Assembly: GCA_030324005.1 (NCBI GenBank)
Contig: JARDVH010000128.1
Coordinates: 39,390,046 to 39,454,045, forward strand
Length of the DNA stretch: 64,000 bases
Direction of reading: 5' to 3'
Source of the DNA: Negaprion brevirostris
Lineage: Eukaryota
The notes under the pieces: generated by a model
Told to the model about the DNA's origin: nothing
The model's database searches: none
The model's input: only the letters and a program-made list of their open reading frames with translations
Translations under genes and position numbers: made by a program
In this document: positions 9,901 to 12,900 of the stretch, piece by piece
Layout: the number at the start of each line of letters is the position of its first letter
Numbering within the stretch: the first letter of the stretch is position 1

Positions 9901-12900
9901 AAATAAGCTACTGATCTGGCAAATTGGACCAGGATGTTATCTATTTTCCCTGGCATGTTAAGATCAAATTAAGATCAAGGTCAAATTCCTGCCTACCTTA
10001 GATCAAATTGATTTGATGTCCTTCAGTCTACTTTACTTGAAATATTATGTAAATATGGGAAGTAGCTTGCATGAACACCAGTGGGCAAATCATAGAATCC
10101 CTACAGTACAGAAGGAAGCCATTCGGCCCATCAAGTCTGTTCTGGCCACAATCCCACTCGGGCCTTATTTCTGTAATCTGCTATTACCCTGCAAATGCCC
10201 CTGACATTAGGGTCAGTGTAACATGGCCAGTCAACCTAACCTGCACATCTTTGGACTGGGAAACCAGAGTACCCAGAGGAAACCCACTCAAACATGGGGG
10301 AGGTGATCTGAGGCTGGAATTGAACCTGGATTCCTAGAAATGTGAGACAGCAGTGCTAACTTCTAGTGCCACGGTGCTGCCCCTCCATGTGCTGTTAACA
10401 GTGTTAAATGTTTATTGGGGTCTTGCGGTACCCTGTATCACAGAGGTTGAGCTAACAATCCACTTGATTCTTATTGTGCTGCTAAGATTTTTAATGTCCA
10501 TTAATATACAACAACAAGTCATATAATGCCTTTAACACAATGAAACATCTGAAGTCGCTTTACAGGACTGTGGTAAAACAGTATGATCTCAAGCCACATA
10601 GGTGATATTAGGTCAGATGATCAAAAGCTTGGTCAGATGATCAAAAGCTTGGTCAAATAGGTAGGTTTTAAGGAGTAACTTAAAGGAGGATAGTGAGTTC
10701 GAGAGGTGTAAGGTGTGAATTCTGGAGCTTGGGGCTCAGGCAGAGTTACCAATGGTGGAGGAATTATCATTGGAAATACGCAGAGGCCAGAACTAGATGA
10801 ATGCAGATGTTTGAGTTGTAGAATTGAAGGAGGTTATGGAGATAAGGAGGGGTGTCTGAAATAAAAACAGAAAAACACTAGGAAAACATCTGTGGAGAGA
10901 GAAACAGAATTAATGTTTTTTGAGTCAGTATGACTCGGCACGATGGAACAGTGGTTAGCTTTGCTGCCTCGTAGCGCCAGGGACCAGGGTTCAATTACGG
11001 CCTTGGGTCAGTGTCTTTGCAGAGTCTGCACATTCTCTCCATGTCTGCATGGTTTCTTCTGGGTGCTCCGGTTTCCTCCCACAATCCAAAGATGTGTGGG
11101 TTTGGTTGATCGGCCATGCTAAATTGCCCCTTGTATCGGGGATTAGCACAGTAAATATGTGGGGATATGGGAATGGGGATATGGGAATAGGGCAGGGTTG
11201 TGGTCAGTGCAGAGTTGATGGGTCGAAAGGCCTCCTTCTGCTGCGTAGGGATTCTGATACTTTGGAGGGATGAGACAACAAGGGTGAGAATTTTAAAATT
11301 AACATATTGCTTGACTGGGAACCAACATAGGTCAGTGAGCACAGGGGTGATAATATTAATGTCGAGCGTGGTTACTGATGACTTTAGGAAAACTATGCAG
11401 GGTTGGTAATCGGAAGAATTTGATTTGTTAATTACCTTTTTAAGGAATGCTATACCATTTATAAGTTTGAAAAGATAAGCATAGTACAATTGAAAGCCAT
11501 TTTAATTTTGAAATATGTTATGGTATGTTGAAATATGGTATACTACTTCAAAATGGAATTGGCTGGATGTTTGAAGGTGAAAGCATTGTAAGGATGTGGG
11601 TACAGAACAGAGAAGGGGAGAGTTAAGTTGTCTCTTGAGCTACTGTTCTATGATAATTGTTACAAGAATAATGCGTTTGGAAAAGGGAAGGTTGAGGGTG
11701 ACCTGAAAGAAGGCTTTAAAATTATGAAAATGTTTGATGGAGAAGATATTTCCACTTACCAATGAGACCAGAACCACATCACAGACTTTAAAGTCCATAG
11801 GACTCAGGGGATGTAGCAAGTTTGATCAAAATTTGCTAATTGTTAATATTTTTGTAACTGGAAGACTTTCCAGTGGAATTCTGCAGGGCTCAGTACTGGT
11901 CCCTGTTTTTTGATGTACATATTAATTATTTGAACATAAACTAGGGGGAACAATGAAGAAGTTTACCAATGACACAAATTGGGCTGTGCGGTTGATAACT
12001 AGGATGATTGCTGTTGATTTTCAGAAGATAGCCATGGAGTGGCCAACAGAGGTCAACACAGAAGTTAGGTGATACATTAGGGGAGGTCAAAATAGGCAAA
12101 GAAATGCACAAATGGGAGAATATGAAGAGGTGTGGAAAAAGTGAGTGCATGTCCACGTGTTCCTAAAGGTAATCGAAGAAAGTGGAAAAGCTGGTTAAGA
12201 AGGCACAAAGGATTCTTTCCATTTATTAACCAAGATGCAGAATACAAGAGCAAAGTTATGCTGGAGCTTTATAAAACAATAGTTGGACCACAACTTGATG
12301 ACCAGAACTTGCAGTTCTGGTCATCACATTACAGAAAGGCTGTAACTACATTAGANNNNNNNNNNNNNNNNNNNNNNNNNNNNNNNNNNNNNNNATTGCC
12401 GCTCCAGGAAAGATTAGAAGAGCAATGAGAAAAATGTTTTCCACCCTGTGGATTTTGGGAGCCTCCGACTCTCAGCATGAATAGGTAGTAGAGGCAAAGA
12501 CCCTCAACTTATTTAAAAGGTGTCTAAGTTTAAAGTTGATTTACTATTGTCGCAAGTAGGCCTACATGAACGCTGCAGTGAAGTGACTGTGAAAATCCTT
12601 TAGCTGCCACACTCCAGCATCTGTTCAAGTACACTGAAGGAGAATTTGGCACTGAGGCAGCAGTGCTAACTATGCCACTGTGTCGCACCCCTGCCATAAC
12701 TTGCAGGTTTATTTGGGAGCAAAAGCCACTAGCTTTCGGAGCGCTTGCTGCTCCTTCATCAGGTGAGTGGGAGTTCTGCTCACAAAGAGAGCATATAACG
12801 ACACAAACTCAATTTACAAAATAATTTGGTTAGAATGCATGTCTTTACAGGTAATCAAGTCTCAAAGGTACAGACAATGTGAGTAGAGAGAGCGTTAAGC

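Follow-up and report, generated by a model that had tools for sequence, protein, structure and literature searches.

We found a minimal type I hammerhead ribozyme motif (min-HHR) on the minus strand of the window, the 64,000-nucleotide stretch of Negaprion brevirostris DNA that was analyzed as a whole. Very probably, the motif derives from the 3′ terminal part of a Penelope-like element (PLE) of high copy number and lies in a truncated, ∼4% diverged insertion opposite a gene that we take to be PARN from its N-terminal peptide, and is likely a silent fossil. The features under discussion are collected in Table 1.

Table 1. Positions of the hammerhead motif, its element and their neighbors in the window
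Feature	Position	Strand	Basis
First coding exon of PARN, from ATG to GT donor	6547..6565	plus	gene name from the N-terminal peptide
Copy, with an internal deletion, of the tRNA-derived SINE common in the window	12525..12703	minus	80% identity to 41160-41286
PLE 3′ UTR / pLTR remnant	12704..12969	minus	matches L059:2693-2943, 3′ of the RT and EN of that copy
Predicted distal 8-bp stem (12781-12774 with 12724-12717)	12717..12781	minus	folding and copy comparison
Minimal type I hammerhead (min-HHR)	12726..12770	minus	descriptor match and consensus of PMC4209133 Fig. S3
N stretch, 641 nt (inferred further element body, at most linker and endonuclease if the length is right)	12970..13610		
Second coding exon of PARN, at the end of intron 1	13915..13992	plus	CAF1 Pfam match

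The minus-strand sequence of the motif was read exactly as the original prediction had claimed. C3 is at position 12762, and an extra A, at 12755, stands between A9 and G10.1. The 5-bp helix II pairs 12754-12750 with 12742-12738, carries a 7-nt loop and includes the G10.1-C11.1 pair (G12754-C12738). It is followed by GAAA (12737-12734), the AGCU palindrome (12734-12731) and a CUA triplet whose A17 is at 12730, and helix I, of 3–4 bp, pairs 12765-12763 with 12729-12727 plus one U-G pair. The core CUGANGA / GAAA / UH is complete in the window copy, and the cut is predicted to fall between 12730 and 12729. When both strands of the window were searched with a min-HHR descriptor, this motif was the single match, and the same descriptor gave no match in 100 windows simulated with matching dinucleotide composition; the motif is not a chance occurrence. 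An Rfam search of the window returned no match to a hammerhead family at E ≤ 1. The same search gave four matches to miRNA models, all far below the gathering score, on an unrelated hairpin; this perfect-armed hairpin at 46103-46187, related to the repeat at ∼1255, is the source of these spurious matches.

Judged by its sequence, the motif is the standard min-HHR of PLEs rather than a special variant, because the extra A, the AGCU palindrome and a 3-bp helix I all belong to the norm as published (PMC4209133). In that survey (Cervera and De la Pena 2014), one nucleotide that separates positions 9 and 10.1, the G10.1-C11.1 pair and a palindromic 15.2-16.2 were conserved in metazoan min-HHRs. The window motif shares with the PLE min-HHRs described there CUGANGA followed by an extra nucleotide, G10.1-C11.1, a helix II of >4 bp, a palindromic 15.2-16.2 without loop 3 and a short helix I, and there too copies are mostly solitary and derive from truncated elements. 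The GAAA-GCU palindromes of turtle, rotifers and Schistosoma and the CAC/GUG helix I of Lottia appear in Fig. S3 of the same paper, whereas the combination of A17 (CUA) with this loop II is family-specific. Cartilaginous fish were not found in its searched supplement.

The extra A was present in all 62 distinct motifs collected from the fetched loci, among them the motif of a second repeat family described below. That an extra nucleotide is a tolerated natural variant, as originally stated, agrees with PMC4209133 and PMC1636495. The CChMVd (+) hammerhead also carries an additional A after A9 and before G10.1 but is a viroid hammerhead with real helices, in which this A10 moderately lowers the trans-cleavage rate (PMC1636495); the extra A is therefore tolerated and is not a mark of higher activity.

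The min-HHR of the second repeat family lies at 1240-1375 on the plus strand, with its core at 1325-1351, and that family gave 1,447 first-look candidates in the genome. The motif has the architecture of the one at 12726-12770, with its palindrome and helix II decayed, and is probably the hammerhead that had been counted as the first. The description of the present motif as structurally different does not hold against this one, the sole other near-intact hammerhead visible in the window.

The motif had been assigned to the PLE type, and this was supported by an RT-EN body found upstream of it in other copies of the family. On these translated sequences, the source family is an EN+ PLE. The other copies encode a YIDD-type RT upstream (Pfam RVT_1 above the cut-off in 2 of 3 ORFs, E 6.9e-8 and 1e-8), a CX4CX2C finger in the RT-EN linker (copies L056, L057, L020 and L024) and a GIY-YIG-like C-terminal end with CCHH residues, the last being a motif read by eye in the translations. 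Pfam matched GIY-YIG below the cut-off (E 0.011) in one of five endonuclease-containing translations, and ESM Atlas look-alikes at 0.96 carried GIY-YIG on 12–32% of their members; a GIY-YIG domain is likely in the family. Pfam gave no matches on three further ORF pieces or on copy L060, and a PDB sequence search with the RT ORF gave none.

One copy, L059, joins RT, linker, endonuclease and a stretch matching window positions 12704-12967 in one piece. The window remnant begins ∼10 nt past the position of the ORF stop in other copies and breaks off ∼70 nt short of the family's usual 3′ end; homology in other copies extends up to ∼1 kb further upstream and ∼70 nt further downstream. No coding sequence is visible in the window copy. 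Insertions that are 5′-truncated, inverted or in tandem are all present in the family.

The clade is likely Neptune, because the CX2-5CxxC linker finger was found in Neptune and Nematis (PMC8557442) and the vertebrate PLEs of a preprint are only Neptune and Poseidon (10.64898/2026.07.22.740005); the assignment draws on the linker and the preprint. Neptune EN+ PLEs show the same order of RT, CX2-5CxxC linker and C-terminal GIY-YIG-like domain with CCHH, the same 5′-truncated, inverted and tandem insertions, and a hammerhead in the terminal repeat (PMC8557442).

Further element body likely lies within the N stretch, since element DNA continues up to the base that borders the gap; the same is true of 11 of the 29 nearest copies. 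By comparison with L059, the 641 nt upstream of the gap border would correspond to linker and endonuclease only. The suggestion that the element body is hidden in the gap is upheld in that homology runs to the N border. Provided that the N length is right, an RT within 641 nt is disfavored, as in L059 it lies >1,000 nt upstream of the matching point. Beyond 13611, no match to the element or to any other fetched locus was seen.

The placement of the motif antisense in PARN intron 1 was borne out by the coding exons on either side of it (Table 1); the CAF1 Pfam match on the second of these had an E of 2.5e-4, below the curated cut-off. The PARN pre-mRNA contains only the reverse complement of the motif, and this is not a ribozyme. 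On the other side of the remnant, the deleted SINE, which is presumably HE1-like, is joined directly to the broken 3′ end of the PLE at 12704.

The family is abundant in the genome. Window positions 12690-12969 gave 4,988 first-look candidates, 40 of which were scored and showed 89–92% identity (self excluded). Exact copies of the 32-mer just downstream of the motif numbered 9,089 and exact cores with a 3-nt loop 3,893, and reversed-pattern controls for the exact-copy counts gave 0. Genome copies conserve the core, with 39 exact 35-nt cores found in the genome. Among the 3,893 cores with a 3-nt loop, pair 3 of helix II is dominated across subfamilies by the A-U, G-U and G-C states (G-C in 149), and 87 of the first 100 G-C cores among the matches listed have one common loop. 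These sequences fit a helix II that was maintained in the parent lineages, because paired states dominate and an A.C mismatch occurs in only 48 of the 3,893.

We compared the window copy with its 29 nearest copies, a small sample picked by similarity to it. All 11 core letters are kept in 17 of the 29, and an intact core is hence expected rather than special. Non-CpG core letters vary less than the background, at 5/261 (1.9%) versus 300/6,832 (4.4%), whereas variation in helix II (10/228) is like the background and shows no drop. The low variation of the core is a point against pure neutrality and against reading the motif as a silent fossil.

The window copy itself differs from the majority of these 29 copies at 10 of 252 non-CpG sites (4.0%; range 2.4–6.3%), and the nearest copy in the genome is 92.5% identical. 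Of the 6 CpGs inferred to be ancestral in these 266 nt, 4 survive in it, which is the top of the range of 0–4 and is seen in 7 of the 29 others as well. It had been called a young copy with its CpGs still intact. Its divergence is the average for the subfamily, its nearest relative is 92.5% identical, its core CpG has decayed and its 3′ end is lost, all of which contradicts a young age; as to the CpGs, the two in helix II are indeed kept but that at N7-G8 of the core has decayed, its C being retained in 19 of the 39 exact core copies.

Thermodynamic folding, which leaves out tertiary contacts and proteins, predicted that helix II forms (p 0.49–0.99) and that helix I prefers a shifted register burying A17. 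The active register made up 5e-3 to 6e-5 of the monomer ensemble over five lengths (∼1e-4). For the AGCU self-duplex only −2.5 kcal/mol was predicted, so that the palindromic 15.2-16.2 gives no stable helix III, and the best predicted dimer of the window sequence is in a non-catalytic register. No second intact motif or tandem partner was seen in the visible window. In PMC4209133, a min-HHR showed no cleavage as a monomer and low cleavage as dimers. The motif had been put forward as the likeliest ribozyme to be active at present; its preservation is the best only within the window, and it is solitary, antisense and predicted to misfold as a monomer. The window copy is likely inactive and a silent fossil, not a functioning ribozyme.

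We also examined 5′ ends at the cut site in the first 92 of the 9,089 downstream-pattern matches, all on contig C1, from which 15 were dropped because N hides the 5′ end. Among the remaining 77 copies, 3 start at offset 0–1 from the cut (one at 3 by eye), 8 at offsets 2–10 and 8 downstream of the cut, and 58 start further upstream than offset 10; 66 of the 77 span the cut site (start at least 2 nt upstream). There was no clear peak at the cut among the 77 copies, a sample so small that an excess of a few percent could be missed. Given this lack of a clear peak, most copies in the sample came from uncut or re-joined RNA. Just before the core, at offsets 30–38 upstream of the cut, 20 of the 77 copies start (loci L141-L230, contig C1), and this cluster is possibly an RNA start or an RT stall site.

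In an active parent element, two hammerheads would meet in RNA made from head-to-tail copies, and their AGCU palindromes would pair into a common helix III. Weak self-cleavage after CUA, inferred from PMC4209133, would then trim the precursor RNA. The RT and GIY-YIG endonuclease then copied this RNA into the genome starting at its 3′ end, and the truncated copies show that copying usually ended early. By our sample, most copies were made from RNA still spanning the cut site, and the window copy has since decayed at the family's average rate. The function of hammerheads in PLEs is described as still unclear (PMC8557442).

The alternative that survives best, and that we consider unlikely, is a tandem or pLTR-bearing insertion with a second hammerhead and a promoter in the N stretch, whose minus-strand RNA would be cut as a dimer. 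Element DNA continues into the N stretch, every core letter of the window copy is intact, and PLEs typically occur in tandem and inverted arrangements (PMC8557442). Among 30 exact-core loci of the family, a second core occurred on the opposite strand at 2 and on the same strand, 341 nt upstream, at 1; the latter count, with some neighbors partly N, also marks same-strand tandems as rare. Further arguments against a cleaving dimer are that the window copy is ∼4% decayed and 3′-truncated, that dimers of one published min-HHR cleaved weakly (PMC4209133) and that the predicted dimer prefers the non-catalytic register.

It is extremely unlikely that the motif is a regulator retained by the host, cutting antisense RNA in PARN intron 1 with the aid of two changes that complete a distal helix I. 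Two of the 10 private non-CpG changes of the window copy (12779 and 12717) do each turn a mismatch of the one predicted distal stem into a pair; neither substitution was seen in the 29 nearest copies, and the core is intact. However, hairpin-driven mutation can perfect quasi-palindromes without selection, and chance or such mutation is the likelier cause of the completed stem. The intact core is what the 17 of 29 nearest copies lead one to expect, divergence overall is average, and including the distal stem leaves the active register at ∼1e-4. With distal helix I completed and a promoter or partner in the N stretch, the window copy might be a functional ribozyme cleaving antisense RNA within PARN intron 1, which we regard as very unlikely; if true, it would be a transposon ribozyme caught during domestication. 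The near-negligible case that the motif belongs to a non-autonomous retrozyme, as one unit of a tandem repeat forming circular RNA, has in its favor the type I hammerhead, the retrozymes reported in one cartilaginous fish and their proposed pLTR origin (10.64898/2026.07.22.740005), but no tandem units and only a single motif are visible in the window, the sequence follows directly on an RT-EN ORF in other copies, so that the unit is not non-coding, and the motif is minimal, not canonical.

The window copy can also be set beside known systems. Non-LTR retrozymes (PMC7229834; 10.64898/2026.07.22.740005) likewise have a type I hammerhead in a repeated element and are likely PLE-related, but they are tandem, non-coding and mostly canonical and efficiently cleaving, whereas the window motif is a min-HHR that stands alone and belongs with an RT-EN element. 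In contrast to RECK-type domesticated intronic hammerheads, which have few copies and a canonical fold, there are thousands of copies and a minimal fold here. Four other sequencing runs were represented by contigs, which show neither ends nor strand, and no contig among those listed spans both the flank and the motif. Literature searches yielded no paper on PLE hammerheads in cartilaginous fishes, and one review that came up uses the word 'shark' solely of a shape; the preprint 10.64898/2026.07.22.740005 counts retrozymes in one such species, and its supplements may name families. For cartilaginous fishes, the family may have no published description. The window motif is a further copy of a motif already described, average and decayed, and matters little as it stands. 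The thousands of family copies are a usable data set on whether PLE min-HHRs cut in vivo; the window copy is no privileged test case and would be less suitable than a synthetic tandem dimer built from a well-preserved motif of the family.

Several other repeats were observed in the window. Decayed 3′-end stumps of the same PLE superfamily lie at 5953-6134, 26636-26703, 49105-49354 and 56125-56289, and three of these four are inverted pairs. Two damaged tandem cores, at 49228 and 49275, fall within a PARN intron. An inverted repeat of 77 nt and 100% identity (42552-42628 and 43140-43216), which adjoins an N stretch, is possibly an assembly artefact. A 167-codon open frame at 676-1179 on the minus strand presumably resembles the esterase-like region of a LINE ORF1.
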